A stretch of 64,000 bases of DNA from Patescibacteria group bacterium (GCA_038206135.1 JBBRBD010000001.1:1919-65918), one strand, 5' to 3'; shown: positions 3,547 to 40,502, counted from the stretch's first letter. Numbers and translations: made by a program. Notes: generated from the sequence alone by a model not told the origin.

Positions 3547-3547
3547 A

Positions 3548-3602
3548 AAGCCGCAAAGTTTATTTAACTAAACTAGTTGCGGCATCGATATTAGGCGGCT
3601 TT
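3548..3602. terminator. putative bidirectional terminator-like inverted repeat between convergent genes
   Basis: GCCGCAA (3550-3556) pairs with TTGCGGC (3577-3583). An outer pair AAGCCGC (3548-3554) / GCGGCTT (3596-3602) also exists. The region is flanked by an A-run and a T-run. It lies between the + exonuclease stop (3546) and the stop of the minus-strand small ORF (3591). Confidence 0.4.
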
Positions 3603-8224: not shown

Positions 8225-8225
8225 A

Positions 8226-22859: not shown

Positions 22860-22860
22860 T

Positions 22861-23781: not shown

Positions 23782-24554
23782 TGAAGAAAAACACAATAAG
23801 TGCAATTATCATTGTAAAAAATGAAGAAAAAATGTTACCTTCGTGCCTAAAAACGCTATTGTGGGTTGATGAAATATTAGTTATAGACACAGGTTCAACT
23901 GACAAAACGATTAAAATTGCAAAAAAACATGGTGCCCGGGTTGTTGAATACACAAACGGAAAATCATTTTCTGATTGGCGAAACTGTGGTTTGAAAGAGG
24001 CGAAAGGAAATTGGGTTTTCTATATCGATGCGGACGAAAGAATATCTGAAAAACTTAAAAATGAGATATCAATAATTGTCTCTAAGAATGGAGAACACGG
24101 AGTATTTGCAATACCTCGATCAAATATTATTTTTAAAAAGGAATTTCGCCACGGCGGCTGGTGGCCCGACTATGTAAAACGTTTCTATAAAAAAACTGCA
24201 TTACAAGGCTGGGTTGGTGATCTACATGAAGAACCTATTATTAATGAACCATTTATTCATCTTAAAAATCATTTGATACATGACAAGCACGAAACTGTTT
24301 TTGAGATGGTTGAGAAAACTAATATCTGGTCTGCAATAGAAGGAAGGCTTATGTATGATGCTAATCACCCTCAAATGAATATTTTAAGGTTCATCACTGC
24401 AATGTGGCGAGAATTCTGGAAACGTATGATTGTCGAACGTGCGTTCTTAGACGGGAAAGAAGGAATTGTAATGGCAATTTATCAGGTTTTCAGTAGATAC
24501 TGTTCATATGCTAAATTGTGGGAACTACAAATTTCAAACAACAAACAAAAATGA
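23769..24554 (+). CDS. GT2 glycosyltransferase (W-W-P-D-Y paralog group)
   Basis: ISAIIIVKNEEKML, ILVIDTGSTDKT, YIDADERIS, GGWWPDY. Confidence 0.8.
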   Translation: MAELMKKNTISAIIIVKNEEKMLPSCLKTLLWVDEILVIDTGSTDKTIKIAKKHGARVVEYTNGKSFSDWRNCGLKEAKGNWVFYIDADERISEKLKNEISIIVSKNGEHGVFAIPRSNIIFKKEFRHGGWWPDYVKRFYKKTALQGWVGDLHEEPIINEPFIHLKNHLIHDKHETVFEMVEKTNIWSAIEGRLMYDANHPQMNILRFITAMWREFWKRMIVERAFLDGKEGIVMAIYQVFSRYCSYAKLWELQISNNKQK

Positions 24555-25576
24555 GAGCAGCACTTTACACTCCTTACTTAGATACCCTCGGTGGTGGTGA
24601 GAGATACTTGCTATCAATTGCACGGGTTCTTTTGGAAGAGAAATGGAATGTAGATATTGAAACAAATGCTCCGGACTTGATACAAAAGGCTTCTCAAAGG
24701 TTTGGCTTTTCGCTAGATGGTTTAAAAGCTGTGCAATCTATAAATCGCGGTGAGGGATATGACCTCTGCATATGGCTTTCTGATGGAAGTATCCCGACTC
24801 TCAGATCGAGAAAAAACATTCTTCATTTTCAAAGACCTTTCCATGATGTTGATGGAAAATCACTTGTTTCAAGGATGAAATTTTTTAGAATATCAAATGT
24901 CATTGTAAACTCAGAATTTACAAAGAAATATATTGACGATGAATTCCCTAAACAGAGTATTGTATTGTACCCACCAGTTGATGTGACAGAATTCATAAGT
25001 AAGCCTAAAGAAAATTTAATATTATATGTAGGTCGTTTTAGTCAATTGGAGCAGGCAAAACGGCAAGATGTAGTTCTTACAGCTTTCTTGAAATTTTATA
25101 AGTTTCATTTGGGGAATTGGAAACTTGTTTTGGCAGGAAGTAGTGATATTGGACGGACAGACTCAGTCGATATTTTGAAAGAACATTCTAAAAAAGATTC
25201 AGTTGAAATACTTGAAAACCCGTCTTTCTCGAAAATCAAAAGTCTTTATGGAAAGGCATCATTTTTTTGGTCTGCTGCAGGCTATGGTGTAAATCAGAAG
25301 CTTGAACCTCAACGTTTAGAGCATTTTGGCATGACTGTAGTTGAGGCAATGGCCGCCGGATGTGTTCCAATCATCTACAATGGTGGAGGACATCGAGAAA
25401 CCGTTGTGAATGGTGTTAATGGATATTTGTGGGATAACCCACTGGACATGATTTCATATACAAAAAAATTAATTCAAGATAAAACACTTCAGAAAGTAGT
25501 ATCTGAGGAAGCTAAACTTAGTTCGAAGAAATATTCATATGAGGTTTTTAAAAAACATTTTCTTCAAATTATATGA
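24551..25576 (+). CDS. GT4 glycosyltransferase (group 1)
   Basis: GGGERY near the N-terminus and C-terminal EHFGMTVVEAMAAGCVPI (GT4 E-x7-E region). ATG 24551 overlaps the upstream stop (ATGA). Confidence 0.8.
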   Translation: MRAALYTPYLDTLGGGERYLLSIARVLLEEKWNVDIETNAPDLIQKASQRFGFSLDGLKAVQSINRGEGYDLCIWLSDGSIPTLRSRKNILHFQRPFHDVDGKSLVSRMKFFRISNVIVNSEFTKKYIDDEFPKQSIVLYPPVDVTEFISKPKENLILYVGRFSQLEQAKRQDVVLTAFLKFYKFHLGNWKLVLAGSSDIGRTDSVDILKEHSKKDSVEILENPSFSKIKSLYGKASFFWSAAGYGVNQKLEPQRLEHFGMTVVEAMAAGCVPIIYNGGGHRETVVNGVNGYLWDNPLDMISYTKKLIQDKTLQKVVSEEAKLSSKKYSYEVFKKHFLQII

Positions 25577-26481
25577 ACAAATTAACTGTCTCTATTATTA
25601 TTCCTAATTGGAACGGAAAACAGTTATTAGAAAAAAATCTACCTTTTGTTATCGAAGCATCTAAATCTAAAAAAAATTCAATATTAGAGATTATTGTTGT
25701 TGACGATGCTTCAACTGATGAATCATTTCAGTTTTTACAGAAAACATACAAAAGACAGATCCGAATAATCAAACATAAAAAAAACTCTGGATTTGCTTCT
25801 GCAGTTAACACGGGTGCAAGACATGCGAAAGGGACGCTACTTTGTCTATTGAATTCAGATGTAGTGCCATCGAAAAACTTCTTAGTAAATACCGTAAGTC
25901 ATTTTAATGAATCAAACATCTTTGCTGTAGTTTTACACGAAAGCTCATATGGACCGGCAACTGGTACATTTACAAATGGATATTTATCTCATAAAGGTAT
26001 GAAAGAATCGAACACGCAACAGTATTCATTTTGGGCAAGTGGTGGCAGTGCCGTTTTTAGTAGGAAACTCTGGTGGGAACTTGGTGGTCTCGACGCTGAT
26101 CTTTTTACACCTTTTTATTGGGAGGATGTTGATTTGGGATATCGAGCTTGGAAGCGAGGTTATAAGATTCTTTGGGAACCAAGTGCACATGTATCTCACG
26201 AACATGAAGGCACAATAAATACAAGCTCATTTCAAAAGCGATATATGGATCAAATAAAGGAACGGAATGAACTACTGTTTCTTTGGAAAAACATTACCAG
26301 CGAGAAAATGTTTCAAAAACATATTCTTGGAATGTTAAATAGATGTATACATCATCCCGGATATCTGAGAATAGTAATTATGGCTCTTAAAAAAGGATCG
26401 TCGGTATTGAAAAAAAGAAGAAAAGAAATAAAGGAAACAACAGTCTCAGATGAAGCAGTTTTTACATTGTTTAATTCATGA
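25573..26481 (+). CDS. GT2 glycosyltransferase
   Basis: VSIIIPNWNGKQLL, IIVVDDASTDES, GFASAVNTGA, WEDVDLGYR. ATGA overlap with the upstream gene. Confidence 0.85.
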   Translation: MNKLTVSIIIPNWNGKQLLEKNLPFVIEASKSKKNSILEIIVVDDASTDESFQFLQKTYKRQIRIIKHKKNSGFASAVNTGARHAKGTLLCLLNSDVVPSKNFLVNTVSHFNESNIFAVVLHESSYGPATGTFTNGYLSHKGMKESNTQQYSFWASGGSAVFSRKLWWELGGLDADLFTPFYWEDVDLGYRAWKRGYKILWEPSAHVSHEHEGTINTSSFQKRYMDQIKERNELLFLWKNITSEKMFQKHILGMLNRCIHHPGYLRIVIMALKKGSSVLKKRRKEIKETTVSDEAVFTLFNS

Positions 26482-27266
26482 AACTTTCAATTATTATTGT
26501 TTCATATAACACTTCAGAGTTTACTGTTTCTTGCATCCGTTCAATTGAGAAATTTTCTCCAAAATGTACATATGAAATTATTGTAGTTGATAACGCTTCT
26601 ACCGACAAAAGCGTTGAGAATTTAATGAAACTAGGTAGTAAGATTGTATTAATCCAAAATAGTGAAAATCTAGGGTTTTCTAAAGCCAATAATATTGGAA
26701 TTCGAAAATCAAAAGGAGAATATGTTTTCTTATTAAATTCAGACACAATACTTGTAGAACAAATTTTTGATGAGCTCATTGCAATTTCAGTAAGTGAAAA
26801 AAAAGCTGGAGTTGTTGCACCACAACTGTTAAATCTGGATAAATCAATACAATCATCCATTTATCGTTTACCAACAATTGTGAATGCTATGAAGCAATAT
26901 TGGTTTGGCATGAAAAATGTATTAGATAAATATGCAGTGAAGGCGGGAAAACCACTTATTGTAGAGTCTGTTGTAGGGGCTGCTTTTTTGATTACTCCTG
27001 AAGCTAGAAAGAAGGTGGGCTTATTAGATGAGAAATATTTTATGTATTTCGAGGATTTAGATTATTGTAGAGCTATCAATTCTTCTGGGTTATTTATATA
27101 TTATGTTCCCAATATTCACATTGTGCACATTCACGGTGCAAGTGGAACTAGTCGGGTGAATGATCTTCTTGTTGAATCTAGTAAAAAATATCTTGGATTT
27201 GGCTATTATTTTTACACTTTTGTGCTTTGGAGCGGACAAAAGTTACAACTTCTCAAATTAGTATGA
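26478..27266 (+). CDS. GT2 glycosyltransferase
   Basis: LSIIIVSYNTSEFT, IIVVDNASTDKS, GFSKANNIGI, FEDLDYCRA. ATGA overlap with the upstream gene. Confidence 0.85.
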   Translation: MKLSIIIVSYNTSEFTVSCIRSIEKFSPKCTYEIIVVDNASTDKSVENLMKLGSKIVLIQNSENLGFSKANNIGIRKSKGEYVFLLNSDTILVEQIFDELIAISVSEKKAGVVAPQLLNLDKSIQSSIYRLPTIVNAMKQYWFGMKNVLDKYAVKAGKPLIVESVVGAAFLITPEARKKVGLLDEKYFMYFEDLDYCRAINSSGLFIYYVPNIHIVHIHGASGTSRVNDLLVESSKKYLGFGYYFYTFVLWSGQKLQLLKLV

Positions 27267-29014
27267 AAATGCGGTATACTTTAAATGTGAAAAAAAGCAC
27301 AGTAATTTTATTGCTAATCCTGATTTTCGCTTCGTACTTGAGGCTTAATAAATTAGATAAAGTTCCTGTTTCCATGTTTGGTGATGAACTCGATGCTGGA
27401 TATCAAGCTTATTCTATTCTTAAGACTGGAAAAGATTACTCTGGAAACTTTATGCCAATTCATATGCAGAGTTTAGCCGAGTGGAGAACTTCACTCTACT
27501 TGTATTCAATTGTTCCAACTGTGGCTGTCTTTGGTATTACACCACTTGGTGTAAGACTTCCAGCTGCGCTATTCGGAATTCTCGGGGTTTGGGCACTTTA
27601 TTTACTTGTGAAAGAGCTTGTCGATCGTATAAATAAAAAGGAACTTCGATATCTCCCGATCGTCGCCGCATTTGTTTTAACAATATCTCCATGGCACATT
27701 GAATATTCAAGAGCAGGTTTTGAAGTAACTGAAATGATTTTCTGTTTACTTATTGGACTTGTCATTTTTTTGAGAAGCTTACGACTTAAAGGGAAATATT
27801 TATGGCTATCAGGTGTGTTTTTTATGTTAATACCTTGGATTTATAGTACAGGTAAACTTTTTGTACCAATGTTTTTGCTTCTGCTTTTTGTACTTTTTAT
27901 AAAAGACATTGTTAAACTTCCACGTAAACAATTACTCTTTGTCGTTGTGTCTATGCTTATTGTTGGTATTCCAATTTTGTACAGTACTTTATTTGGTGGT
28001 GGAACCGCGAGATTTAATTATATTTCTATTTTTGGAGATCCAACACTTGAGCCTGAAATAGGTACCGCCCGTGGAGAAGATGCTCTTTCACGCGGTGAGG
28101 AAGGGACAGGTCTCACTCCGACAATTATTGATAAGGCATATCACAATAAAGTTACTTACTTAGGAAGTGAAGTTATTGCTCACATGGTGATGCCATTTTC
28201 GACTGACTTTTTGTTCTTAACTGGAGATCCAAATCCTCGACATTCCATAGATGGAATGGGAGAACTTTACATTGTTGAAATTGTTTTTCTTTTAGCAGGA
28301 CTCTCCTTTTTCATTTCTAAATCAGATGCTCGTTTAAAGTTATTGATTGGTGGATGGCTTATTCTTGGAGTAATTCCCTCTGCATTAACTCGAGATGGAG
28401 GTAATCATGCGACGCGACTAATACTTATTTTACCACCACTGAGTTTCCTTGTTTCAATGGGGATACTTCAAATTGTAAATAATACTAAAAAATTCTTGAA
28501 GCCATTGGCCGTTGCATTTATTGTTGGAGGATATTTACTTTCATTTACTTCATATCAACACCTTTATTGGATACATAATCCATTACAATCTGAACGGTGG
28601 TGGCATTTTGGATGGGAGCAAGCAATAGGAGACATGAAAGCGGTAGAAAGCCAGTATGATCAAGTATTTATTACGACTAGAGATGAGCCACCTTGGGTCT
28701 TCTTTGCCGCTTGGTCTCAGTATGATCCAAATCTGTGGCACTCAGGATATCCATTTAAAGAACACACGGTAGAAGGGTTTGGAAAAATGAGCTACATTGG
28801 TAAATATTCGTTTGGAAGTCCTGAAAAACTCGCAATGTATGATTGGGGAAAAATTCTTACCCCAAAGATGCTTTTTGTAGCAAGCGCAAAAGAAGTGAAT
28901 GTGAATTTGATCAAGGAACCAAATAGAACACCACCAGATTTAAAGCTAATTAATTCAGTTGCATATCCATCCGGAGAACCCGCTTTTTACTTATTTACTA
29001 AAATAGACAAATGA
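27263..29014 (+). CDS. GT-C membrane glycosyltransferase, PMT/ArnT-like (tandem paralog 1 of 5)
   Basis: MFGDELDAGYQAYSILKTGKDYSGN first-loop motif, multi-TM, C-terminal soluble domain. ATG 27263 overlaps the upstream stop (ATGA). Confidence 0.8.
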   Translation: MKMRYTLNVKKSTVILLLILIFASYLRLNKLDKVPVSMFGDELDAGYQAYSILKTGKDYSGNFMPIHMQSLAEWRTSLYLYSIVPTVAVFGITPLGVRLPAALFGILGVWALYLLVKELVDRINKKELRYLPIVAAFVLTISPWHIEYSRAGFEVTEMIFCLLIGLVIFLRSLRLKGKYLWLSGVFFMLIPWIYSTGKLFVPMFLLLLFVLFIKDIVKLPRKQLLFVVVSMLIVGIPILYSTLFGGGTARFNYISIFGDPTLEPEIGTARGEDALSRGEEGTGLTPTIIDKAYHNKVTYLGSEVIAHMVMPFSTDFLFLTGDPNPRHSIDGMGELYIVEIVFLLAGLSFFISKSDARLKLLIGGWLILGVIPSALTRDGGNHATRLILILPPLSFLVSMGILQIVNNTKKFLKPLAVAFIVGGYLLSFTSYQHLYWIHNPLQSERWWHFGWEQAIGDMKAVESQYDQVFITTRDEPPWVFFAAWSQYDPNLWHSGYPFKEHTVEGFGKMSYIGKYSFGSPEKLAMYDWGKILTPKMLFVASAKEVNVNLIKEPNRTPPDLKLINSVAYPSGEPAFYLFTKIDK

Positions 29015-30270
29015 ACTGGAAATTGGTGAGTATTCTTTTTTTTGGGTTGCTTTTTAGAATATTTCTCATTCCAGTTGCCAGACATGGAGATATAAACAAC
29101 AACACCTCATGGGGCCAACTTCTTCTTACTCGCGGGCCAAATGGCTTTTATGAGCAAGAAAATTGGACATATTCTGCACCAAATCAACCACCACTTTACC
29201 TCGTTTTATTTGGATCAACAGCGTTTTTTCAAAACACGATTAATACTAGTATCCATTGGGCAAATGATCACATTTCAGTATTTCCTTCGAAAACAATTTG
29301 GTGGTTTGATAGTTGGGGGGAGTTGTATATTGCAAAGCTTCCAGGTATTTTTGCAGATCTCGGAATAGCATTTGTTATTTACAAACTTATAAAAGCGAAG
29401 AAAGGATTGATACTCGCAACCGTATGGCTTCTAAATCCAGTTTCTTGGTATAACTCTGCCATTTGGGGAGGAACAGACAGTATTGTTAATTTAATTGGAT
29501 TGGTTTCATTGAGTTTCTTATATAAAAAGAAATTAGAGTCGTCGGCAGTTTTTTTCACTTTGAGTGTTCTGTTCAAGGGCTCACTTCTAATCTTTGCGCC
29601 GTTTTGGCTTTTAGTGGCATTCAGGCAAAAATTTACTATGCGAGAATGGAAAAACACGATACTAATGTGTCTTTTAGTTTTTCTTCTGTTTTCACTTCCT
29701 TTTCACTTTTCGTTAAATATGCCTATTTGGTTCTTTAACCTCTATACTCAACGTTTTCTTCCAGGTGAAATTGGTACTGTTACCGCAAATGCATTCAATT
29801 TTTGGTGGATGGCGAGTCCCTCAAATGTACTGGATAACGTGACAACCTTTGGAATAAGTATGCGAATTATTGGACTCGCGATAACAATAGTTCTTGCAAT
29901 ACCGCTTATTAAACGGATATTAAAATCACCCGTTAAAATTAATCAATTTATTATCTTCGCAGTGCTGTCATTTGTATCATTCTTTTTTATGACCCGTATT
30001 CATGAACGATATTTGTATCCTTTTTTTCCGCTCGCAACAGTGTCACTAGCTTTCTTCCCGTGGCTTTGGGTACCATATGTACTGTTGTCTCTCTCTCATC
30101 TTCTAAATCTTTACAATCTATTCTGGGCACCGGGGATACCATCACTTGAGTCGATTTACACAAATCCGTCACTTCCCCAAGCACTTTCAATTCTTAATGG
30201 TGTAATTCTTTTAGTTGTTTTTGTGTTTTTACTTGTTTCTAAAAAAAATACCGCATCACATGGTAAATAG
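29011..30270 (+). CDS. polytopic membrane protein, Gpi18/PIG-V-like mannosyltransferase-like (GT-C superfamily candidate)
   Basis: At least 10 TM. N-terminal loop VARHGDINNNTSWGQ. Later TRIHERYLYPFFPL. ATGA overlap with the upstream gene. Family assignment is tentative. Confidence 0.5.
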   Translation: MNWKLVSILFFGLLFRIFLIPVARHGDINNNTSWGQLLLTRGPNGFYEQENWTYSAPNQPPLYLVLFGSTAFFQNTINTSIHWANDHISVFPSKTIWWFDSWGELYIAKLPGIFADLGIAFVIYKLIKAKKGLILATVWLLNPVSWYNSAIWGGTDSIVNLIGLVSLSFLYKKKLESSAVFFTLSVLFKGSLLIFAPFWLLVAFRQKFTMREWKNTILMCLLVFLLFSLPFHFSLNMPIWFFNLYTQRFLPGEIGTVTANAFNFWWMASPSNVLDNVTTFGISMRIIGLAITIVLAIPLIKRILKSPVKINQFIIFAVLSFVSFFFMTRIHERYLYPFFPLATVSLAFFPWLWVPYVLLSLSHLLNLYNLFWAPGIPSLESIYTNPSLPQALSILNGVILLVVFVFLLVSKKNTASHGK

Positions 30271-30292
30271 AGGAGTTGCCACGTATACTTAA

Positions 30293-31930
30293 GTGAATAT
30301 GCAGCGGATGATTGTACTGGGAATTGTGCTTCTCGCGTTTGTTGTGAGATTGGTTGGGCTATCGAACCATCCAGGAGGTTTCACCCCTGATGAAGCTTCT
30401 TTTGGGTATGATGCCTATTCGATTTTAAAGACTGGTAAAGACCAATGGGGAAATACATTTCCTCTCACCTTCAAATCATTTGGCGACTATAAATTACCGG
30501 TTTATACGTATATTGCGATACCTTCAGTAGCATTATTTGGTTTAAATGAAGCAGCTGTTCGATTGCCAAATGCTATTCTTGGGTCTTTGGCAGTTTTAGC
30601 AACATATTTACTGGCATTTGAATTCTGTCATGAAGACAAAAGCAAACAAAAAATTGTCCCACTATTTGCGGCGCTTTTCCTGGCACTTTCTTATTGGCAT
30701 ATTACATTGTCTAGAGGTGCATTTGAAGCAAACCTTACGACTTTTTTCATGACGGCTGGTGTTTGGCTGTTCTTAAAAGCTAGAAAAAAAAAGTGGTTAA
30801 TATTTCTTTCTATGTTTTTATTTGGTTTTAACCTCTTTACTTACCACGCTTCACGGTTAGTTACTCCAGTAGTTGTTGTTACATTAATGTGGATATATAG
30901 GGATGCTTTTCCAAAAGGAAAAGCACATCTGCTTGCTAAGTTCATATTTGTGGGTTTCTTTGTAGCAAGTGCCTTGAGTCTTGTCTCTGGCTCTGGAATA
31001 CGAGCTGCTACCGCCACCATTTTTTCACAAAACTTAGGATCAGGAGTTATCAGAGCGTCAGTCGTAAATGCTGGTATGCCTTTAGTTCTTGGAAAGGCAC
31101 TGTATAACGAACCGTCATTTAAGTTTAGTAAAATTGTTTCAAACTATATTTCATATTTTTCACCCCAGTTCCTAATTACAGAAGGAGCTCGTGAGGCAAG
31201 TTATGGAATGATCCCTGGTGTTGGTTTAATAACAGTTGTTGAATTTACTGGTTTGTTGTTTTTTGTTTGGATTCTCACAAAACAAAAGTCAAAATATTTA
31301 TTGTTGTTAAGTATTTGGATTCTTGTCGCCCCGTTTCCAGCAGCTGTTTCTGTGGGTCCAGGTGGCGCTGCAAATAGAGCAGCAATACTGATGCCAGCGC
31401 TTGAGATTGCTGCTAGTTTTGGTGTTTATTATGCAGTAAATTTGCTAAAGAAAAAGTGGCAGTTTATGAGTTATTCCTTTTTAATATTATTAACATGTAT
31501 TCTTGGGCTTTTTGCTTACACCAAATATATATATGAACAACCAGTCTATGCAAGCAATGGAATGATGTATGGAATGTCTTCGTTATTTGAGTATTTAAAT
31601 GAATATCCTACAAAGAAAATTATCATAAGTCGTGCACTTTCAGAACCTCACATGTATGCTGCATTTTATGATCAAATTGACCCATCGCTATATCAACAAG
31701 CAACCATTAATTGGAATTTTCAAAAAAAAGGACTAAATTGGGTTGACCAGCAAGAAGGGTATTCTGTCGGAAGATATACTATTGGTTCGATAGACAAAAT
31801 TCGCGATTTTCAGTTTGATAATACATATGTAGTAGGAAGCCCTGAAGATATGCCTCTAAAAGTGCACATAGTTAAAACTATATATTCTGCAGATCAGAAA
31901 CCACTTTGGGTTGTTGCAGAAAAGCCATGA
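30293..31930 (+). CDS. GT-C membrane glycosyltransferase, PMT/ArnT-like (tandem paralog 2 of 5)
   Basis: FTPDEASFGYDAYSILKTGKDQWGN, WHITLSRGAFEANL, multi-TM. Confidence 0.8.
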   Translation: MNMQRMIVLGIVLLAFVVRLVGLSNHPGGFTPDEASFGYDAYSILKTGKDQWGNTFPLTFKSFGDYKLPVYTYIAIPSVALFGLNEAAVRLPNAILGSLAVLATYLLAFEFCHEDKSKQKIVPLFAALFLALSYWHITLSRGAFEANLTTFFMTAGVWLFLKARKKKWLIFLSMFLFGFNLFTYHASRLVTPVVVVTLMWIYRDAFPKGKAHLLAKFIFVGFFVASALSLVSGSGIRAATATIFSQNLGSGVIRASVVNAGMPLVLGKALYNEPSFKFSKIVSNYISYFSPQFLITEGAREASYGMIPGVGLITVVEFTGLLFFVWILTKQKSKYLLLLSIWILVAPFPAAVSVGPGGAANRAAILMPALEIAASFGVYYAVNLLKKKWQFMSYSFLILLTCILGLFAYTKYIYEQPVYASNGMMYGMSSLFEYLNEYPTKKIIISRALSEPHMYAAFYDQIDPSLYQQATINWNFQKKGLNWVDQQEGYSVGRYTIGSIDKIRDFQFDNTYVVGSPEDMPLKVHIVKTIYSADQKPLWVVAEKP

Positions 31931-33597
31931 AAAATATCTTACGAAAGAGACCAATAACACTTTCCGCAGTTTCATTTGCTTTGTTTTTTATACTATTAAT
32001 ACCAACATTTAGTAGAATGCTGCGACCGGGGATATACAGCATGCAGGATTTTCCTTACTTTAGACTTGTTGAATATACTCAGTGTCTAAAAGACGGCCAA
32101 ATTCCGTGTCGTTGGGCAGCAGATGCTGGATTGGGTTTTGGAGAACCAGTCTTTAACTTCTATTCTCATGTCCCATTCTTTTTTGGTGCACTGTTAGTTC
32201 AAATTGGTATTAGTGCTATATCTTCTTTGAAATTATTGTTTGCATTCTCTATTGTTGCCTCTGGATTTACTATGTATTTACTTTCAAAAGAATTGTGGAA
32301 AAGTAAATATTCTGCGTTTGTTTCAGGAATACTTTATGTCTATGCTCCGTATCGCGCCGTGAATGTTTGGGTGAGAGGTGCGTTGCCCGAATCATTTGCA
32401 TTTATCTTTTTACCACTTATTTTGTTTTTTTTCGAAAAGTATCTTATAAATAAAAATAAAAAGTATTTGTTAGGTTTTATTAGTTCATTTACGGCTCTCA
32501 TCCTCACTCACAATCTATCTGTTCTATTATTTTTCCCTATTATTTTATTTTATATTTTCACACGACTTATCCAAATGAGATCGTTGCCATTATTGGTATC
32601 ATTTTTCCTTGGGTTTTTATGTTCTGTTCTACTTGCTTCATTTTATATATTCCCAACTGTTTTTGAATCAAGTCTAGTAAATCTACAAACAACTACCCAA
32701 GGATATTTTGATTTTAGAGCACATTTCGTAACGATTCCTCAATTGCTTTTTTCTCGTTTCTGGGGGTATGGCGGTTCGACATGGGGTGATCAAGATGGGT
32801 TAAGTCTAGCTCTCGGTCAAGTTCAGTGGATTGTCGCTCTATTTCTAATAATCGGATTATTACTCAAATCTTTAAGGAAGAAGCTGACGTATATAGATAT
32901 TTTAGCAGCATTATTAATTTTCCTAAGTATGTTGTTTTTATTCTTTACTCACAATAAATCTGCATTTATATGGGAAGAGTTCTCTACAGTTATGAAATAT
33001 ATTCAATTTCCGTGGAGATTTTTGGGAGTAACTTTATTTACAATTTCACTTGCTGGAGGGTATTTGCCGCTTTTATTTTCAAAGTTCAGAGTAATAATCT
33101 CTGTTTTAATTGTTTTTACAGCAATATTTTTTAACTACTCGTATTATCACGAAGATATCTGGAATGTGACTTCTGATAACGAAATGCAATCAGGTAAAAA
33201 TTGGGTAGAACAATCAAGAGCATCAATAGGTGATTATTGGCCAAAATATGGAGTAATTCCTCATGATTTCCAATCACAGTCGTTTCCAAACTTACAACCA
33301 CTTGTCAAAAAAAGTAATTCACAAGTATTTACAGTTAATGTCTTAAATCAAAGTCCTGTTGTTTTTCCCGTAACATATTTCCCAGGGTGGAGTGGTTCAA
33401 GTAGTCTTGGAAATATTTCAATTTTACCAAACAAAGATGGGTTAATATCAACATTACTTCCTATTGGTAAACAAACCATTAATTTGAGTTTCAACAATTC
33501 GCCAGTCCGTACATATTCAAACATGGTTTCATTTATAACATTTACTGCGCTTTGTCTTTGGTTTACATTTTCAAATAAAATAAAGAAATTCAAATGA
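31927..33597 (+). CDS. polytopic membrane protein, YfhO-like GT-C candidate (paralog of the 15030 product)
   Basis: MQDFPYFRLVEYTQCLKDGQIPCRWAADAGLGFGEPVFNFY and FRAHFVTIPQLLFSRFWGYGGSTWG align with the 15030 protein. ATG 31927 overlaps the upstream stop. Confidence 0.55.
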   Translation: MKNILRKRPITLSAVSFALFFILLIPTFSRMLRPGIYSMQDFPYFRLVEYTQCLKDGQIPCRWAADAGLGFGEPVFNFYSHVPFFFGALLVQIGISAISSLKLLFAFSIVASGFTMYLLSKELWKSKYSAFVSGILYVYAPYRAVNVWVRGALPESFAFIFLPLILFFFEKYLINKNKKYLLGFISSFTALILTHNLSVLLFFPIILFYIFTRLIQMRSLPLLVSFFLGFLCSVLLASFYIFPTVFESSLVNLQTTTQGYFDFRAHFVTIPQLLFSRFWGYGGSTWGDQDGLSLALGQVQWIVALFLIIGLLLKSLRKKLTYIDILAALLIFLSMLFLFFTHNKSAFIWEEFSTVMKYIQFPWRFLGVTLFTISLAGGYLPLLFSKFRVIISVLIVFTAIFFNYSYYHEDIWNVTSDNEMQSGKNWVEQSRASIGDYWPKYGVIPHDFQSQSFPNLQPLVKKSNSQVFTVNVLNQSPVVFPVTYFPGWSGSSSLGNISILPNKDGLISTLLPIGKQTINLSFNNSPVRTYSNMVSFITFTALCLWFTFSNKIKKFK

Positions 33598-35261
33598 TAA
33601 AAAAATATTCATTATTAATTTTAGTAATTATAATTTTACTTGGTGCTTTACTCCGATTAGTAAATTTAAGCACAATGCCGCCTTCACTAAACTGGGACGA
33701 AATTTCTCATGGGTATAACGCATACTCAATTTTGAGAACTGGTATGGATGAATGGGGTGTACATTTTCCAGTAGCGAACTTCAGGGCGTATGGTGACTAC
33801 CCACTAACCTTAAATTTATATTTAACAGTACCCTTCGTTTGGGCTTTCGGCTTGACTGCTTTTGCGATTCGTTTTCCACATGCGCTTTTAGGAATAGGTA
33901 CTATCATTGTTAGTTACTTACTTTCATATGGAGTAACCAAGAAGAAAGGTGTCAGTTTGGTCGTAGCTTTTTTGGTTTCAGTAGATCCTTGGTATGTTTT
34001 TACCTCTCGGTTTGTCTTGCAGAGCAATTTATCAGTATTTCTACTTACCGCAGGTATGGCTGCATTTGTTCATCGTAAATCGAACAAATATTTGTTGCCA
34101 ATTAGCACATTTTTATTAGGTCTTACACTTTTTTCTTATCATACGACAAGAATATTTACCCCGCTTCTTTTAGTCTCAATCGCGATAATATTTAGAAAAG
34201 AATTTTTCACTAAACTAAATATTTTTATTGCCGTTTTATTTCTTTTACCTCTGCCTTTTATTTTATTAAATCCCAATGCCAGAGCTCGTTCTGCTGAAGT
34301 ATTTCTAATAAATGATGGTTCAGTTGCAGCAATTGAGTATACTAGAAACAACTCATCCCTTCCTGCACTATTCTCAAAGATAATCTACAACAGACCTGCT
34401 TATCTAATTGAACAATCGTTACTACATTATGTTGATTATTTTTCTCCCCAATTTCTTTTTTTAAGGGGAGGAACTCAGTATCAGTTTAGCGTTCCAGATC
34501 AAGGGCTTCTGTATTTGTTCAGCGCGCCATTTTTTTATATTGGATTTATATTGTTAATATACAGAGCAACACGAAAAAAAGACAAACTTTCTCAAATTCT
34601 GCTCATATGGATTCTCTTAGCACCAATTCCTGCAAGTATTACGACAGAACGGTTTGCAGTTCTACGTTCATCTAGTATGTTACCAATACCTGAAGTTCTA
34701 ACTTCGATGGGGTTATATGAAATTGTCGAATTACTACGTAGTAGAAAACTTAAATTATTTTCGTTTCTTGTACCTTCATTTATATTGTTAACATTATTAG
34801 GACTTATACATTACATTTCTATATATACAGAAAGTTATAAGACAAATTATTCATGGGCTTGGCAGTATGGTTACTCACAGGTAGTGCAGTTTTCTCAGAG
34901 TCACTATAATGAATTCGATCAGTTTATTATTACGAAAAAGTTTGGAGAGCCACACGAGTATGTTTTGTTTTATACTGCTTGGAGCCCTAATAAGTATATG
35001 AATGACACTAACTTAGTTCGTTATACGCAATCAAATTGGTGGTGGGTCGATTCTTTTGATAAATATGTGTTTGTAAACGATTGGCAAATTCCAAAGATTG
35101 GGGAGAAGTTTGTTACTGAGCGTAAAGCAATTACTGACTGTGCTACTTTAAAATGTGCACTTATAACATCTGAAGGAAATGCACCTGAAGGTTGGAAAAA
35201 AATTCAAACTATACTATTTTTAGATGGAAAAACGGCATTTGAGATATATGAAAATAAATAA
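33594..35261 (+). CDS. GT-C membrane glycosyltransferase, PMT/ArnT-like (tandem paralog 3 of 5)
   Basis: LNWDEISHGYNAYSILRTGMDEWG, multi-TM. ATGA overlap with the upstream gene. Confidence 0.8.
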   Translation: MIKKYSLLILVIIILLGALLRLVNLSTMPPSLNWDEISHGYNAYSILRTGMDEWGVHFPVANFRAYGDYPLTLNLYLTVPFVWAFGLTAFAIRFPHALLGIGTIIVSYLLSYGVTKKKGVSLVVAFLVSVDPWYVFTSRFVLQSNLSVFLLTAGMAAFVHRKSNKYLLPISTFLLGLTLFSYHTTRIFTPLLLVSIAIIFRKEFFTKLNIFIAVLFLLPLPFILLNPNARARSAEVFLINDGSVAAIEYTRNNSSLPALFSKIIYNRPAYLIEQSLLHYVDYFSPQFLFLRGGTQYQFSVPDQGLLYLFSAPFFYIGFILLIYRATRKKDKLSQILLIWILLAPIPASITTERFAVLRSSSMLPIPEVLTSMGLYEIVELLRSRKLKLFSFLVPSFILLTLLGLIHYISIYTESYKTNYSWAWQYGYSQVVQFSQSHYNEFDQFIITKKFGEPHEYVLFYTAWSPNKYMNDTNLVRYTQSNWWWVDSFDKYVFVNDWQIPKIGEKFVTERKAITDCATLKCALITSEGNAPEGWKKIQTILFLDGKTAFEIYENK

Positions 35262-36921
35262 GATAACCTTACATTCATTGATATTGATTTTCATAATTAC
35301 CATTGCGGCTGCTATTAGGCTCTATAACTTATCGAATGTCCCTCCCCATTTAACTGCAGACGAGGCTGCTCTCGGCTATAATGCATATTCTATTTTGAAA
35401 ACTGGACGAGACGAACATGGAGTACTTCTTCCGATAATTTTCAAATCCTTCGGAGATTATAAGCCTGGTTTATATGTATATCTTACAGTCCCTTTTGTTG
35501 CAATTTTTGGATTAAATGAATTTTCGTCTCGAATTGCAGGTGCACTTTTTGGAATATTAGCGGTATATATATTATATAAAGTTGTTGGACTTTTGTTTGC
35601 AGAAGAAAAACAGAAGCATTTATCACTCATTTCAGCTTTTCTTTTAGCTCTTTGTCCTTGGCATATATTGTTTAGTAGAGGGGCCTGGGAAGTTGATGTT
35701 GCGCTCACCTTTACACTAATCGGTATATATTTCTTTTTAAAATCTTTTAAATCATCAAAAAATCTTCTTTTCTCTGCATTCTTTTTCGCGTTAACATTAG
35801 CAACATATCAAGGAGCAAAACTTTCTACAGCTATTGTTGTAGTAATACTTTTAATTTCATTTAGAAAGCAGTTTTTCAATCTTCCTAAGAAGTCTATTTT
35901 TACGGCAGGTATAGTCGGTCTTCTCATGTCACTACCAATAGTTCTTTCGTTGTTTAATGGCCAAGCGGGGAGACTCCAAGTTTTTAGTGTGTTTTCAGCA
36001 CCCAGACCTGAAGCGTATCTACAGAACTTTTTAAGCGAAGGTAGCGAACAGGTAGGAACGATAGGATATTATGCATTTCACCCCGAAGGTCTTAATTTTT
36101 TAAGAGGAATAATGGGGAGGTGGTTTAATCATTTTTCTGGCCGCTTTTTATTTTTTGAAGGGGATTGGCAAAATCCCCGTCATTCTGCTCCATATGTCGG
36201 AATGCTAAATTTTCTTGATTTACCACTTTTGTTAGTTGGTATTGTCGTACTCATAAAAACAAAAAATAGAGAGGCATCAACATTTATTTTTCTTTGGTTA
36301 TTATTTGCAAGTTTACCAGCAATTCTCTCTAGAGATCAGGTTCATGCAGTTCGAAGTTTAAATATGCTGGTGCCCCTCGTCCTAATAGAAGCACTTGGAT
36401 TTTCTTCAATTGTGACAAAAATTTCGGTTAAACGAAGCGTACTTTTTATCGGCGGTGCAATTTATCTTATCTTTTTCGTGTATTACCTTGACGCTTACTT
36501 TGTTCACTTGCCCAAGTTAAACTCACAATATTGGGAGTATGGGTTTAAACAGGCAGTTCAGACTATCTCTCCTATTCAAAATCAATACAAAACTATTATA
36601 TTCCAACAAAGTTACTCACAACCTTATATTTATTTCTTGTTTTATGAGAAATATGATCCAAAGACATACCAATCGCAAAGCGCTAACCACTTTATTGCCA
36701 GTAAATATGGAGATGTAGGCCAGGTAAGTAATCTAGACAACATACAGTTTAAAGGTATTGATTGGCAGGTATTGCGTGGCCAAACAGGTACACTTGTAGT
36801 AGGTGACAGCGAACGTATACCAGTTGGGGATTCTCAAGAAGGTACAGCATTTCATGTAATCAAAGAAATTCCGTATTTAAACGGAAAATCTATTTCGCTT
36901 CGAATTATTGATATCAAATAA
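35248..36921 (+). CDS. GT-C membrane glycosyltransferase, PMT/ArnT-like (tandem paralog 4 of 5)
   Basis: LTADEAALGYNAYSILKTGRDEHG, WHILFSRGAWEVDV, multi-TM. Start could be 35224 or 35248. Confidence 0.8.
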   Translation: MKINKITLHSLILIFIITIAAAIRLYNLSNVPPHLTADEAALGYNAYSILKTGRDEHGVLLPIIFKSFGDYKPGLYVYLTVPFVAIFGLNEFSSRIAGALFGILAVYILYKVVGLLFAEEKQKHLSLISAFLLALCPWHILFSRGAWEVDVALTFTLIGIYFFLKSFKSSKNLLFSAFFFALTLATYQGAKLSTAIVVVILLISFRKQFFNLPKKSIFTAGIVGLLMSLPIVLSLFNGQAGRLQVFSVFSAPRPEAYLQNFLSEGSEQVGTIGYYAFHPEGLNFLRGIMGRWFNHFSGRFLFFEGDWQNPRHSAPYVGMLNFLDLPLLLVGIVVLIKTKNREASTFIFLWLLFASLPAILSRDQVHAVRSLNMLVPLVLIEALGFSSIVTKISVKRSVLFIGGAIYLIFFVYYLDAYFVHLPKLNSQYWEYGFKQAVQTISPIQNQYKTIIFQQSYSQPYIYFLFYEKYDPKTYQSQSANHFIASKYGDVGQVSNLDNIQFKGIDWQVLRGQTGTLVVGDSERIPVGDSQEGTAFHVIKEIPYLNGKSISLRIIDIK

Positions 36922-36923
36922 CT

Positions 36924-38579
36924 ATGAATTTTTTAAATAAACACAAAATAGCAATTATCTTGTTTTTGGTAGTTATTCTTGGAAGTATCTTGAGACTTTA
37001 TCAATTAGGGCAAACACCAGCATTGAACGCGGATGAGGCTGCGTTGGGATATAATGCATTTTCTCTCCTAAAAACAGGTAAAGATGAACATGGTAATTCT
37101 TGGCCTTTGTATTTCCAGTCATTCAATGATTATAAGCCGGGTCTTACAGTATATTTGATCCTACCTATGGTGTATTTCTTTGGATTAACTGAATGGAGTG
37201 TTCGGCTTTTACCCGCCATTATTGGAATACTTACAATTCCGTTGTTGTACTTTTTAGTGAAGGAAATCATAAAAGGGACGAAAGACAAAAATATTGAAAA
37301 ATATGTACCTTTAGTTGCAGCTTTTGTACTATCTGTCTCTCCTTGGCATATACATTTTAGTAGAGGAGCTTGGGAAGTAAATATTGCTACCTTCTTTATG
37401 TGTCTAGGTTCTTTGTTTTTTATGCGAATGAGGACAAATTCAAGAGCAATTGTTATTTCAGCCATCTTTTTTGTGTTATCACTCTACACATACCACGCTG
37501 CACGGATTACTTCACCACTTTTAGCAATTACACTCGCAGTTATCTACCGCAAAGATTTAATAGAGAATAAAAAGTACCTAATAGTCTCGATTGTTGTAGG
37601 CTTTGTTCTTTGTGTACCACTGCTACTTTCATTGAGAGGACCTGCAGGTCTTGCTCGTGCTGACGGTGTTGCTATTTGGTCTGATTCAGGCCCCGAAAAC
37701 AGAGTGAACGAACTTAGAGGGGACTACAGTAATTTAAATGGTATTGTTCCGAAAGTTTTACATAATAAACCCGTAGCGTATTCACTCGCTATTGCAAGTA
37801 ACTGGGCTAAACACTATTGGGGTGAGTTCTTGTTTCTTTCAGGTGACGATATTCAAAGGAACAAAGTCCCTGAAACAGGACAAATGCATTTAATTGAAAT
37901 AGTTTCTGTGTGCGTTGGTATGTTCGAAGTTATTAAACGTTCAAACAAAAAATGGATATTTGTATTAGTTTGGCTTGCAATTGCTCCAATTCCGGCAGCC
38001 ATCACATTTCAAGCTCCACATGCACTTCGTGCTGAAAGCATGGTAATTCCTTTAACTATCATTGCCGCATTTGGTCTTGTGAAGTTCATACAATATTTTA
38101 AGAAATATCGGATACTACAAGTATTCATTATTATATTAACCGGACTTTTATACACTGTAATTGTTGCTCGCTACGTACATATGTATTATGTACACATGGC
38201 AAAAGAATATCCATTTTCATCTCAATATGGTATTAAAGAATTAGTAAATTTTGTAGGGCCGATTCATCAGAATTACACAAACGTAATTATCACAGACAGA
38301 TATGATCAGCCATATATTCTGTTTTTGTTTTATATGAAATATGATCCTGCTACATTTCAACAAGAGCACACACTCACGCCACGAGATTTATACGGCTTTT
38401 CGACAGTACGATCATTCAGCAATTTTAGGTTTGAATCAATTCCGTTTGAAGTATTCAAAAACAAGTATCCAGGTAGTCTTATAATCGGCACAGATAAAGA
38501 AATTTTAAGTGGAGCAAACATTACTAAAGATATATATGGAATTAATGGTTACCGTTATTTTAGAGTTGTTTTAAATTAA
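36924..38579 (+). CDS. GT-C membrane glycosyltransferase, PMT/ArnT-like (tandem paralog 5 of 5)
   Basis: LNADEAALGYNAFSLLKTGKDEHGN, WHIHFSRGAWEVNI, multi-TM. Confidence 0.8.
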   Translation: MNFLNKHKIAIILFLVVILGSILRLYQLGQTPALNADEAALGYNAFSLLKTGKDEHGNSWPLYFQSFNDYKPGLTVYLILPMVYFFGLTEWSVRLLPAIIGILTIPLLYFLVKEIIKGTKDKNIEKYVPLVAAFVLSVSPWHIHFSRGAWEVNIATFFMCLGSLFFMRMRTNSRAIVISAIFFVLSLYTYHAARITSPLLAITLAVIYRKDLIENKKYLIVSIVVGFVLCVPLLLSLRGPAGLARADGVAIWSDSGPENRVNELRGDYSNLNGIVPKVLHNKPVAYSLAIASNWAKHYWGEFLFLSGDDIQRNKVPETGQMHLIEIVSVCVGMFEVIKRSNKKWIFVLVWLAIAPIPAAITFQAPHALRAESMVIPLTIIAAFGLVKFIQYFKKYRILQVFIIILTGLLYTVIVARYVHMYYVHMAKEYPFSSQYGIKELVNFVGPIHQNYTNVIITDRYDQPYILFLFYMKYDPATFQQEHTLTPRDLYGFSTVRSFSNFRFESIPFEVFKNKYPGSLIIGTDKEILSGANITKDIYGINGYRYFRVVLN

Positions 38580-38583
38580 TTTT

Positions 38584-39450
38584 ATGAAATTATCAATTGT
38601 GCTCGCTACGAGAAACGAAGAATCAAATATTTACAACTGTCTTTTTGCTATAAAAAGTATAGCCGACGAAATAATCATTTTTGACGAACACTCTACTGAT
38701 AAAACAATTGAAATTGCTAGAAAATTTGGCGCATCCGTTTTTGATACGAATCATAATGATAATTTTCATGTAACAAAACAGAAAGCAATAAATAAAGCAA
38801 AGGGTGAATGGATATTGCAACTCGACGCTGACGAGATTGTAACAAAACAGCTTTCTAATGAAATATCGGAAGTTATTAAAATGACTAACGAAGAAATACA
38901 TAATAGAGTTCCCAAAAACAAAAAGGATGCATTACTTTTTGAAAGGCATCTTGCACTTCTTAATAAGCGCGATGGTCAACCCAAAAATAATTTTGGAGAA
39001 GTTGTTGCATTTTTTATTCCTCGAGTAAACATGTTCTTAGGAAAACCACTTATACATGGAGGTGTTTATCCTGATGGTGTTATTCGTTTAATTAAAAATG
39101 GTCGGGCGCATTTACCAGCTAAGTCAGTCCATGAACAAATGCAAATAAATGGCGCCGTTGCATGGCTTTACAACCCTTTGGAACATTGGGATTCTCCTAC
39201 ATTAATGAGATATATTATGCGATTAAATCGTTATACAAGTCTGCAGTCCGTTGATATATCAAAAAAGGGTGTTTCTAAGTCACTTTTGAATTTAATACGG
39301 TATTCGTCATTTGAACCGGCAAAGGTTTTTATCGATCGATTTGTAGTTCATCGAGGATATCTCGATGGAATGTATGGGTTTATCTGGGCATTGTTCTCGG
39401 CTTGGCATTATCCAATCGCATATTATAAATTTTTTGTAAATACACCATGA
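38584..39450 (+). CDS. GT2 glycosyltransferase (W-W-P-D-Y paralog group, third member)
   Basis: LSIVLATRNEESNI, IIIFDEHSTDKT, LQLDADEIVT, GGVYPDG. Confidence 0.8.
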   Translation: MKLSIVLATRNEESNIYNCLFAIKSIADEIIIFDEHSTDKTIEIARKFGASVFDTNHNDNFHVTKQKAINKAKGEWILQLDADEIVTKQLSNEISEVIKMTNEEIHNRVPKNKKDALLFERHLALLNKRDGQPKNNFGEVVAFFIPRVNMFLGKPLIHGGVYPDGVIRLIKNGRAHLPAKSVHEQMQINGAVAWLYNPLEHWDSPTLMRYIMRLNRYTSLQSVDISKKGVSKSLLNLIRYSSFEPAKVFIDRFVVHRGYLDGMYGFIWALFSAWHYPIAYYKFFVNTP

Positions 39451-40502
39451 GAATTGCAATAGATGCAGGTCCACTTTCCGATGGGAACTCTGGTCGTGGA
39501 ATTGGAGTATACACAAAATTACTTTCAGAAGCGCTTATTACAATTGCTTCGAATCACAGAAGCAATATTGATTTAATTGATATTCATAATGCACAAGACC
39601 TTTCAATATATGATGTAGTTCACTATCCTTACTTTGATTTTTTTAAAAACACGCTTAAAGTTCCACAACGCACACCAGTTATAGTAACAATACACGACGC
39701 AATTCCACTTATTTATCCAAAACAATATCCTTTAGGTGTGAAAGGCACTATAAATTTATTTCGGCAAAAAAACACGCTTAAACGTGCAAAAATTGTTATC
39801 ACTGATTCTAATACTAGTAAAAAAGATATTGTTCGTTTTCTGAATATTAAAGAAAATATGATAGTACCTATTTATTTAGGAACGACGATTTTGGGTGTTC
39901 AACCTGCTATTGATGTAAAAAAATTGCTTATAAAACACGGAATAGAGTTTCCATATGTTCTGTACATAGGTGACGTAAATTGGAATAAAAATTTGGTATC
40001 ATTGGCAGAAGCGTGTGAAAGTGCAAAGCTCCACTTAGTAATTATTGGAAAGAAGGCTATATCAACAAATTTCGATAAAAACCATATAGAAAATATGCCT
40101 TTATTAGAACTACAATCCAAATATGGAAACAGCGAGTACATCCATCGAATAGGATTCATTCTTGATGAGGAACTTCCAGTTTTAATAAAAAAGGCAATAC
40201 TTTTGTGTCAACCATCATACTACGAAGGATTTGGACTAAGTGTGCTGGACGCTATGTCACTAGGTACACCTACTGTTTGTGCTCGGACACAAGCTTTAGT
40301 AGAAATATATGGTGATTCAACCGTTTATTTCGATCCATACAATATCTCTGAAATGTCCTCTGTCTTGAAATCAGTATTTACGAGTAAAAATTTGCAGTCA
40401 AAGTTATCAAAAAAAGGTGAAACATTATCTCAAAAATTTAGTTGGGAGAAAACAGCACAGAAAACTTTTGAAATATATCAAAAGGTATTAAACACAAAAT
40501 GA
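39447..40502 (+). CDS. GT4 glycosyltransferase (group 1)
   Basis: MRIAIDAGPL N-terminus and C-terminal EGFGLSVLDAMSLGTPTV. ATGA overlap with the upstream gene. Confidence 0.8.
   Translation: MRIAIDAGPLSDGNSGRGIGVYTKLLSEALITIASNHRSNIDLIDIHNAQDLSIYDVVHYPYFDFFKNTLKVPQRTPVIVTIHDAIPLIYPKQYPLGVKGTINLFRQKNTLKRAKIVITDSNTSKKDIVRFLNIKENMIVPIYLGTTILGVQPAIDVKKLLIKHGIEFPYVLYIGDVNWNKNLVSLAEACESAKLHLVIIGKKAISTNFDKNHIENMPLLELQSKYGNSEYIHRIGFILDEELPVLIKKAILLCQPSYYEGFGLSVLDAMSLGTPTVCARTQALVEIYGDSTVYFDPYNISEMSSVLKSVFTSKNLQSKLSKKGETLSQKFSWEKTAQKTFEIYQKVLNTK

Follow-up and report, generated by a model that had tools for sequence, protein, structure and literature searches.

A putatively ancient, order-conserved set of five GT-C-type glycosyltransferase paralogs in a glycan-biosynthesis island of Microgenomates bacteria

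The DNA considered here (the window; 64,000 nucleotides of a Patescibacteria group bacterium, GCA_038206135.1, JBBRBD010000001.1:1919-65918) carries between positions 27263 and 38579 five genes for polytopic membrane glycosyltransferases (GT) of the GT-C type, which are named in the following by their first nucleotide (27263, 30293, 33594, 35248 and 36924). The five genes are old paralogs, related at the protein level over their full length, and not a recent repeat. Judged from the phylogeny and the gene neighbourhoods of their relatives, they appear to be an ancient fixed set rather than the product of an ongoing, lineage-specific diversification. We propose, with a probability of about 0.55, that they catalyze five non-redundant extracytoplasmic steps of one conserved surface-glycan pathway, each step being dependent on a lipid-phosphate-linked sugar.

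The five paralogous genes

In a preliminary description of the window, which was made from the sequence, five open reading frames with almost the same first extracytoplasmic loop had been named. Their coordinates, their location on the plus strand and the quoted loops are exact. The five genes are:

27263-29014, plus strand: paralog 1, GT-C enzyme, 583 amino acids (aa); possible alternative start TTG at 27227
30293-31930, plus strand: paralog 2, 545 aa, GTG start
33594-35261, plus strand: paralog 3, 555 aa
35248-36921, plus strand: paralog 4, 557 aa, or 565 aa from the ATG at 35224 (public record)
36924-38579, plus strand: paralog 5, 551 aa

The public protein that is identical to the product of 35248 begins at the upstream ATG at 35224. 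Two motifs are found in the N-terminal part of the proteins, motif 1 being the loop with the Asp-Glu (DE) pair:

27383-27430, plus strand: motif 1 of 27263, DELDAGYQAYSILKTG
30389-30436, plus strand: motif 1 of 30293
33696-33743, plus strand: motif 1 of 33594
35359-35406, plus strand: motif 1 of 35248
37032-37079, plus strand: motif 1 of 36924
27692-27724, plus strand: motif 2 of 27263, variant WHIEYSRAGFE
30695-30727, plus strand: motif 2 of 30293, WHITLSRGAFE
33990-34022, plus strand: motif 2 of 33594, divergent WYVFTSRFVLQ
within 35248, plus strand: motif 2, WHILFSRGAWE
37344-37376, plus strand: motif 2 of 36924, WHIHFSRGAWE

The pattern DE-x3-GY-x-A-[YF] has exactly five matches in the six-frame translation of the 64-kb window, one in each paralog gene. 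Motif 2 had been described as W-H-I-x-F/L-SRGA-x-E in all five proteins. In this strict form it is present in 30293, 35248 and 36924 but not in 27263 and 33594, and the core that is common to all five is W-x4-S-R.

Compared pairwise (BLASTP), the five proteins are 25-34% identical over ~470-566 aligned residues (E 3.6e-38 to 2.6e-105), so that their similarity is not limited to the motifs, and the five-way alignment has 50 invariant columns, which extend from residue 15 to residue 489. At the DNA level the genes share only patches of 32-179 bp with 68-84% identity around the motifs. The view that these are old paralogs and not a nucleotide-level repeat is thus borne out. A recent tandem duplication or an assembly artefact is ruled out by the same confinement of the DNA identity to short patches flanking the motifs.

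Orthogroups and conserved gene order

Scanning of the GTDB species genomes with patterns derived from the motif itself yielded at least 574 confirmed relatives, and with a profile of the five paralogs 5,877 representatives (50% clusters, E <= 1e-30) were found among 1.84 billion proteins, so that the family is a large one. Of 8,000 candidates scored for the 35248 protein, more than 2,600 are homologs of it. Apart from the protein itself, the best matches are 55-70% identical, which is above the identity with any paralog; those with a name belong to Patescibacteria, Woesebacteria or Microgenomates and are annotated as "glycosyltransferase family 39" or "ArnT family". On the contigs with two of the 35248 orthologs the neighbourhood matches the window gene for gene, and the 78 best loci are all from Microgenomates-type metagenome-assembled genomes (MAGs).

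A neighbour-joining tree of 312 family members, with the second PMT_2 subfamily of the window as outgroup, gives five orthogroups with bootstrap values of 81-98:

Orthogroup 27263: 63 sequences from 55 loci, bootstrap 81
Orthogroup 30293: 38 sequences from 37 loci, bootstrap 90
Orthogroup 33594: 44 sequences from 43 loci, bootstrap 98
Orthogroup 35248: 36 sequences from 35 loci, bootstrap 84
Orthogroup 36924: 31 sequences from 30 loci, bootstrap 92

Each orthogroup has approximately one member per locus. It should be noted that the orthogroups as given are slightly smaller nested clades, which are the supported ones; for the largest possible clades the exact-clade bootstrap is low (10-25%) because of a few rogue sequences at the edge. 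The mean identity is 38-45% inside the orthogroups versus 27-33% between them. Woese-, Shapiro-, Ames-, Collier- and Daviesbacteria are all represented. Among the 22 loci that have at least four of the orthogroups, 21 are colinear with the window, and 15 of the 17 loci in which both flanks are visible have five to seven family copies. When the genes of 82 loci are written as strings of best hits, the order 27263-29011-30293-(31927)-33594-35248-36924-38584 recurs, and the strings often take in the upstream cytoplasmic GTs (21963 to 26478) and the downstream genes 39447, 40499 and those for the flippases. Some lineages are without one orthogroup (e.g., that of 30293 or of 27263) and have kept the others.

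Because each paralog has its own, approximately single-copy orthogroup and because the order is kept in 21 of the 22 informative loci, the five paralogs are best regarded as an ancient fixed set. The gene-family expansion and diversification postulated in the preliminary description are not supported as a lineage-specific or ongoing process.

Extra family copies are present in some relatives (2025-3728 on the minus strand in loci L003 and L004; also in L008, L009, L032 and L053), some of them on the opposite strand between the orthologs of 27263 and 29011. Copies outside the five orthogroups, as listed for loci L062, L067, L074, L078, L080 and L081, could represent independent expansions or a deeper divergence. 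Many MAG records with the array (loci L007-L010, L021, L023-L026 and others) are titled "uncultured Gammaproteobacteria" or "Pseudomonadales", which is apparently a mislabelling.

Fold, membrane topology and family placement

The protein encoded by 35248 was modelled with AlphaFold2 from 39 homologs with high confidence values (predicted local distance difference test, pLDDT, 88; predicted template modelling score, pTM, 0.89). The model has 11 transmembrane (TM) helices, a first loop of 65 residues with D38-E39, motif 2 on a short loop, a TM7-TM8 loop of 87 residues, which is of lower confidence, and a C-terminal alpha/beta domain of ~130 residues at about 425-557. In the short loops of the model 15 of 61 residues on the predicted cytoplasmic side are Lys or Arg versus 4 of 51 on the outer side. 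Because of this bias the N-terminus is placed inside, and the DE loop, motif 2 and the C-terminal domain are placed outside. All five paralogs have a homologous C-terminal domain; the variable periplasmic C-terminal domains that had been anticipated, in the sense of a variable add-on, are not there.

The model superposes on solved GT-C enzymes, by which a GT-C(A) class fold is recognised. ALG12, AglB/STT3, ArnT and Pmt are about equally close in the fold comparison, and Foldseek gives the same families. Based on the predicted structure, the assignment of the five paralogs to the GT-C fold, class A, is secure, and no one characterised family stands out as the closest. D38-E39 (numbering of the 35248 protein) is invariant in the five paralogs and the 39 homologs and is conserved to 85% or more in every orthogroup. 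In GT-C enzymes of the Pmt/ArnT type the catalytic hallmark is a DE in loop 1 (PMC8698208), and loop-1 DE, 11 TM helices and a PMT_2 module have been described as hallmarks of the Pmt/ArnT clan (PMC8698208; PMC7801869).

In Pfam the five proteins have only marginal matches to PMT/PMT_2 (20-38 bits) in their N-terminal part. The gathering score of PMT (PF02366), 22.7 bits, is exceeded by 30293 (28.0 bits), 33594 (28.6 bits) and 36924 (32.5 bits) over the N-terminal 130-170 residues only; 27263 and 35248 do not match PMT, and the PMT_2 match of 27263 is below the cut-off (20.5 versus 26.1 bits). Neither a PMT_4TMC nor a MIR domain is found in any of the five (Pfam, E <= 0.01). In NCBIfam there are only sub-threshold matches to Agl23 and LA_3751 and none to ArnT, the best being Agl23 (TIGR03663) with 22-42 bits versus a cut-off of 126. 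A search of the PDB with single sequences gave nothing relevant. A profile search of all PDB sequences found ArnT as sole match (5EZM, E 0.056, profile positions 72-232) and no Pmt.

The term "PMT-like GT-C", which was used in the preliminary description, is therefore right for three features: the DE in the first outward loop, the 11 TM helices and the PMT_2 module. Membership in family GT39 is not demonstrated, because PMT_4TMC and MIR are absent, because there is an extra C-terminal domain, and because Pmt is not the closest structure. The five paralogs are a distinct, uncharacterised GT-C subfamily with a PMT_2/ArnT-type N-terminal module, which shows that the existing database names "GT39" and "ArnT family" are imprecise for them.

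Conserved and paralog-specific residues

Alignment columns were analysed by orthogroup (212 sequences). This was done in place of a comparison of nonsynonymous and synonymous substitution rates (dN/dS), which is meaningless here because synonymous sites are saturated (the nearest orthologs have 70% protein identity, the paralogs 25-34%). The same 19 residues are conserved to 85% or more in every orthogroup, namely R24, D38, E39, G43, Y44, D55, G58, G88, R95, P137, S143, R144, Y187, R242, R369, G384, Y417, P471 and F501; 13 of them lie in outward loops. Judged by these residues, what is presumed to be the catalytic base has been retained in all five enzymes, and there is no apparent pseudo-enzyme among them. 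Several of the conserved arginines could bind the phosphate of the donor, by analogy with R138 of Pmt1 and with ArnT (PMC8698208).

The 13 strongest orthogroup-specific positions (36, 37, 41, 147, 188, 245, 312, 363, 368, 457, 458, 460 and 490) are all in outward loops or in the C-terminal domain and none is in a TM segment. For example, the residues that flank the DE pair differ by orthogroup (F-g-DE, T-p-DE, N-W-DE, t-w-DE, N-a-DE), and each orthogroup has its own signature also in the other outward loops, such as at the end of the TM7-TM8 loop. Such a pattern would be expected if the paralogs shared their chemistry and type of donor and differed in acceptor, position or linkage, and the suggestion that the paralogs differ in acceptor specificity agrees with the location of the distinguishing residues on the extracytoplasmic face. 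The outward location is supportive rather than decisive, because outward loops are the most conserved regions overall.

The conserved block 21963-44181

The genes between 21963 and 44181 are spaced by -37 to +22 nt, mostly with 4-nt overlaps, and a scan for promoters and terminators from 21 to 40.9 kb gave no excess over shuffled controls. This fits a single operon. Besides the five paralogs the block contains:

21963-27266, plus strand: six soluble cytoplasmic GTs (five GT2, one GT4), no predicted TM, tightly packed or overlapping, order kept in relatives
29011-30270, plus strand: interleaved polytopic protein, 419 aa, ~8 TM, 4-nt overlap with the upstream gene
31927-33597, plus strand: interleaved GT-C of a different family, 556 aa, full-length paralog of 14976-16850 (30% identity, E 6e-76)
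38584-40502, plus strand: GT2 (paralog of 21963) and GT4, directly downstream of the array, both kept in related arrays
40499-41635, plus strand: PIG-V/Gpi18-like GT-C, 378 aa, ~7 TM, eighth GT-C of the block, conserved downstream of the array
41639-44181, plus strand: two genes for Wzx-type (Polysacc_synt) flippases, same position in loci L001 and L002

That GT-C genes of other kinds are interleaved with the array had been recognised before and is supported by hhalign: the ortholog profile of 29011 aligns to the five-paralog family with a probability of 93.6% over the N-terminal module, and 31927 does so with 84%. The families assigned to them had to be revised. The 29011 protein had been called Gpi18-like. 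It has no Pfam match, and among 15 orthologs, which occupy the same position in many related loci, one matches GT87, one PIG-U, one EpsG and none Mannosyl_trans2. Going by these profiles, it is a remote GT-C without an assignable family. The PIG-V-like gene of the block is 40499-41635, of whose orthologs 7 of 13 match Pfam Mannosyl_trans2 (best E 3.2e-13); a second one is at 4734-5888 on the minus strand. The 31927 protein had been called YfhO-like. It does not match the YfhO model of Pfam and has only a weak PMT_2 match (21.9 bits), and its ortholog in L001 matches PF10131 (PTPS_related). The gene is missing from some related arrays. In 31927 and 14976 the residues C53 and C61 in the first loop are invariant, and PYRAV(N/D)VWVRGALPE aligns with motif 2 of the five paralogs, which suggests that the SR/VR-G-A-x-E element may be a wider GT-C feature.

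The paralogous GT2 genes 21963-22859 and 38584-39450 bracket the block. Their weak best matches, far below cut-off, are SunS-type peptide S-glycosyltransferases. Neither DNA-level repeats nor mobile-element genes were found between 21 and 44 kb.

Proposed function and alternative explanations

According to our proposal each of the five enzymes would span the cytoplasmic membrane with its 11 TM helices and have its N-terminus inside. Its outer face would present loop 1 (D-E followed by GY-x-AYS-ILKTG-x-D), the W-x4-S-R loop, further conserved arginines and the C-terminal alpha/beta domain. GT2 synthases of the same island would make polyprenol-phosphate-sugars on the cytoplasmic side, these would be flipped, and the sugar would then be moved to an acceptor outside the membrane with the loop-1 Asp as catalytic base. 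Each paralog would be responsible for a different step (position, linkage or sugar) of one glycoconjugate pathway conserved in Microgenomates, its putative partners in the operon being the GT-Cs 29011, 31927 and 40499, about eight cytoplasmic GT2/GT4 enzymes and the Wzx-type flippases. The combination of a GT-C with a lipid-phosphate-sugar synthase and a flippase is an established scheme of extracytoplasmic glycosylation (PMC11127046). We infer from the foregoing the use of lipid-phosphate-sugar donors, the stepwise division of labour, the order of action and the identity of the acceptor, which is more likely to be a lipid-linked or wall glycan than a protein that is O-glycosylated directly. 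A more far-reaching version, which we put forward only tentatively and consider clearly less probable, is that the block 21963-44181 is a bacterial counterpart of the ALG pathway in the lumen of the endoplasmic reticulum (ER) or of mycobacterial arabinomannan assembly: a lipid-linked oligosaccharide would be begun inside, flipped and extended by eight GT-C steps to a lineage-defining surface glycan of Microgenomates. If so, the product would plausibly be the molecule that these ultra-small episymbionts present to their hosts.

Several points weigh against the five-step proposal. Donor and acceptor are pure inference. The candidate polyprenol-phosphate-sugar synthases of the island (see below) are far below the NCBIfam cut-offs, they are paired with other GT-Cs, and none adjoins the five paralogs; an initiating phosphoglycosyltransferase, a polymerase, a ligase or an LCP enzyme was not recognised in the window. 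The gene 1068-2609 encodes a protein of 513 aa with one N-terminal TM helix and a linker (aa 36-85) that is 60% Ser/Thr/Pro, as would suit O-glycosylation. The nearest solved structure, that of ArnT, is detectable by sequence at E 0.056 only. With respect to the phylogeny, the related loci were found by patterns that derive from the motif, and only the best 80 of at least 574 were kept, which biases the sampling to close relatives, and the orthogroups are from neighbour-joining on p-distance-type distances rather than from maximum likelihood. Finally, the arrays of Gottesman-, Curtiss- and Chisholmbacteria (4-7 copies) are not assignable to the five orthogroups.

The paralogs could instead be PMT-like protein O-glycosyltransferases, each of which puts a hexose from polyprenol-phosphate-hexose directly on Ser/Thr of a different set of proteins that are secreted or exposed at the surface (S-layer, pilins, anchored proteins), in line with the different protein targets considered in the preliminary description. 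A DE in loop 1 and 11 TM helices are also features of the Pmt enzymes of bacteria and eukaryotes (PMC8698208), the gathering score of Pfam PMT is passed by three paralogs, orthologs are publicly annotated as family 39, and the anchored protein with the Ser/Thr/Pro linker is encoded in the island itself. The PMT matches are, however, N-terminal only, PMT_4TMC is undetected, the profile search found no Pmt in the PDB, and eight GT-Cs, about eight cytoplasmic GTs and Wzx in one conserved operon look like the assembly of a complex glycan rather than the modification of proteins with one sugar. We consider this explanation unlikely. It is compatible with the five-step proposal in that a glycan could be started on a protein by one paralog and lengthened by the rest. 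Less probable still is that the five proteins form obligate hetero-dimers or -oligomers, like Pmt1-Pmt2 or EmbA-EmbB, so that the set reflects the stoichiometry of a complex and not five reaction steps. Co-conservation, the fixed order and translational coupling via 4-nt overlaps would be in accordance with it, and solved relatives (Pmt1-Pmt2, Pmt4, Emb) are dimers according to the titles of their PDB entries; but all five have the full set of active-face residues, so that none is like a non-catalytic partner, and some lineages drop one orthogroup, such as that of 30293 or 27263, and keep the rest.

It is very improbable that the genes are Gtr-like modules for variable surface antigens, i.e., a set that evolves fast, varies between strains and modifies a surface polymer so as to evade recognition by phages or hosts. 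Such a function is known from GT-Cs of Shigella and Salmonella that use lipid-phosphate-sugar donors (PMC11127046), relatives have additional copies that cannot be assigned, in part on the opposite strand, and the fall of the GC content along the island (from ~0.38 to 0.30) hints that its distal part may be more mobile. Against it, the five core genes form approximately single-copy orthogroups with an order kept across distinct Microgenomates candidate phyla, orthologs are 40-70% identical as compared to 25-34% for the paralogs, and the region from 21 to 44 kb is free of DNA-level repeats and mobile-element genes.

Comparison with known systems

Among the closest known systems are the ER-lumenal mannosyl- and glucosyltransferases ALG12, ALG9, ALG3 and ALG6 and the mycobacterial arabinan/mannan GT-Cs AftA/B/D, Emb and PimE, which work in the way proposed here for the five paralogs. 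ArnT (GT83; 5EZM/5F15), the undecaprenyl-phosphate-L-Ara4N:lipid A transferase, is matched in sequence by the paralog family only at the E value given above. ArnT has 13 TM helices, whereas the 35248 model has 11, and the GY-x-AYS-ILKTG loop and the W-x4-SR motif are specific to the paralog family; lipid A is an unlikely acceptor in a CPR bacterium (candidate phyla radiation). From the GT39 Pmt enzymes (yeast Pmt1/2/4 and those of actinobacteria) the paralogs differ by the lack of PMT_4TMC and MIR and by the extra soluble C-terminal domain of 130 aa; Pmt is neither the closest structure to the paralog model nor found in the PDB by profile search.

In three-component systems (GtrA/GtrB/GtrC, CsbB/YfhO, PgfS/PgfM, GT136) a GT-C depends on a flippase and on a polyprenol-phosphate-sugar synthase of the GT2 type (PMC11127046). 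Candidates for such synthases are present in the island in the form of GT2-GT-C pairs and a GT2-GtrA/DPMS fusion. Unlike in these systems, the five paralogs have no dedicated adjacent synthase or GtrA, and they form a multi-enzyme array rather than a single accessory module.

Significance

CPR bacteria (Patescibacteria) have genomes of ~1 Mb and little biosynthetic capacity, and to our knowledge nothing is known about the chemistry of their cell surface. With at least 57 kb and 15 GT-Cs, the island takes up a very large part of a genome for which ~1 Mb is expected, and an array whose composition and order are kept across several Microgenomates lineages implies that a specific, complex surface glycoconjugate has long been under strong selection. 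The genes are already public under generic names, and GT-C enzymes are a well-known kind of enzyme. In the searchable literature we found no description of a subfamily with this loop signature or of a five-orthogroup array of fixed order in an operon with eight GT-Cs, and no account of GT-C expansions in CPR bacteria. We regard the array as a sound starting point for studies of the surface chemistry of a major CPR lineage; it is not surprising in its mechanism and does not represent a new class of system. Concrete targets for expression, mutagenesis and structural work are provided by the 19 conserved residues and by the signatures of the orthogroups.

The wider glycan island

Almost all of the window is taken up by tightly packed genes that run in one direction, on the plus strand, and include a glycan-biosynthesis island of at least 57 kb (5940-63233). 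In total there are 15 recognisable GT-C genes and three polytopic proteins without a family. Four of the GT-C genes (6626, 9179, 10750 and 12966) are of the PMT_2 type, and 52733 matches the N-terminal GT-C domain of AftD (E 4.8e-19). The window also contains ~14 GT2, ~6 GT4, five methyltransferases, a UDP-GlcNAc 2-epimerase, a short-chain dehydrogenase/reductase (SDR), three Wzx-type flippases (18749, 41639, 42907) and an ABC exporter (16928). Further features are:

1-1004, plus strand: GT2 fused to a GtrA/DPMS TM domain, 3' part cut by the window start, candidate polyprenol-phosphate-sugar synthase (DPMS-type architecture)
4734-5888, minus strand: second PIG-V/Gpi18-like GT-C (hhalign 99%), only sizeable minus-strand gene
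5940-6644, plus strand: small GT2, 234 aa, overlaps the start of GT-C 6626
12248-12994, plus strand: small GT2, 248 aa, overlaps the start of GT-C 12966
51680, directly upstream of 52733: GT2 with two C-terminal TM helices, candidate polyprenol-phosphate-sugar synthase

The best NCBIfam matches of 5940 are the polyprenol-phosphate glycosyltransferases ArnC, Dol-P-hexose transferase and PpgS, all far below cut-off, and those of 12248 are PgfS and Dol-P-hexose transferase, also below cut-off. In three cases (5940/6626, 12248/12966 and 51680/52733) a GT2 gene is followed by an overlapping or abutting GT-C gene, an arrangement that resembles ArnC/ArnT, GtrB/GtrC and PgfS/PgfM. A DHH/DHHA1 phosphoesterase is encoded between the GT-Cs 6626 and 9179 (8118-9206).

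Three polytopic proteins (20193-21956, 54724-56244 and 56222-58090) have 9-12 predicted TM helices and no Pfam match. They are candidates for polymerase, ligase or further GT-C functions; the comparison of 20193, 54724, 56222 and the 40499 family with the five-paralog profile by hhalign was uninformative (2-15%). In the protein encoded by 1068-2609 the 50-aa linker with 60% Ser/Thr/Pro is the only such segment in the window; the protein also has a domain with 14 Cys and no Pfam match, and could plausibly be an acceptor for O-glycosylation that the island itself encodes.

The GC content falls along the window from ~0.39 to 0.30. It is 0.29-0.32 between 46000 and 64000, as compared to 0.34-0.39 upstream, and the distal island may be more variable or of other origin than the conserved core at 21-46 kb.

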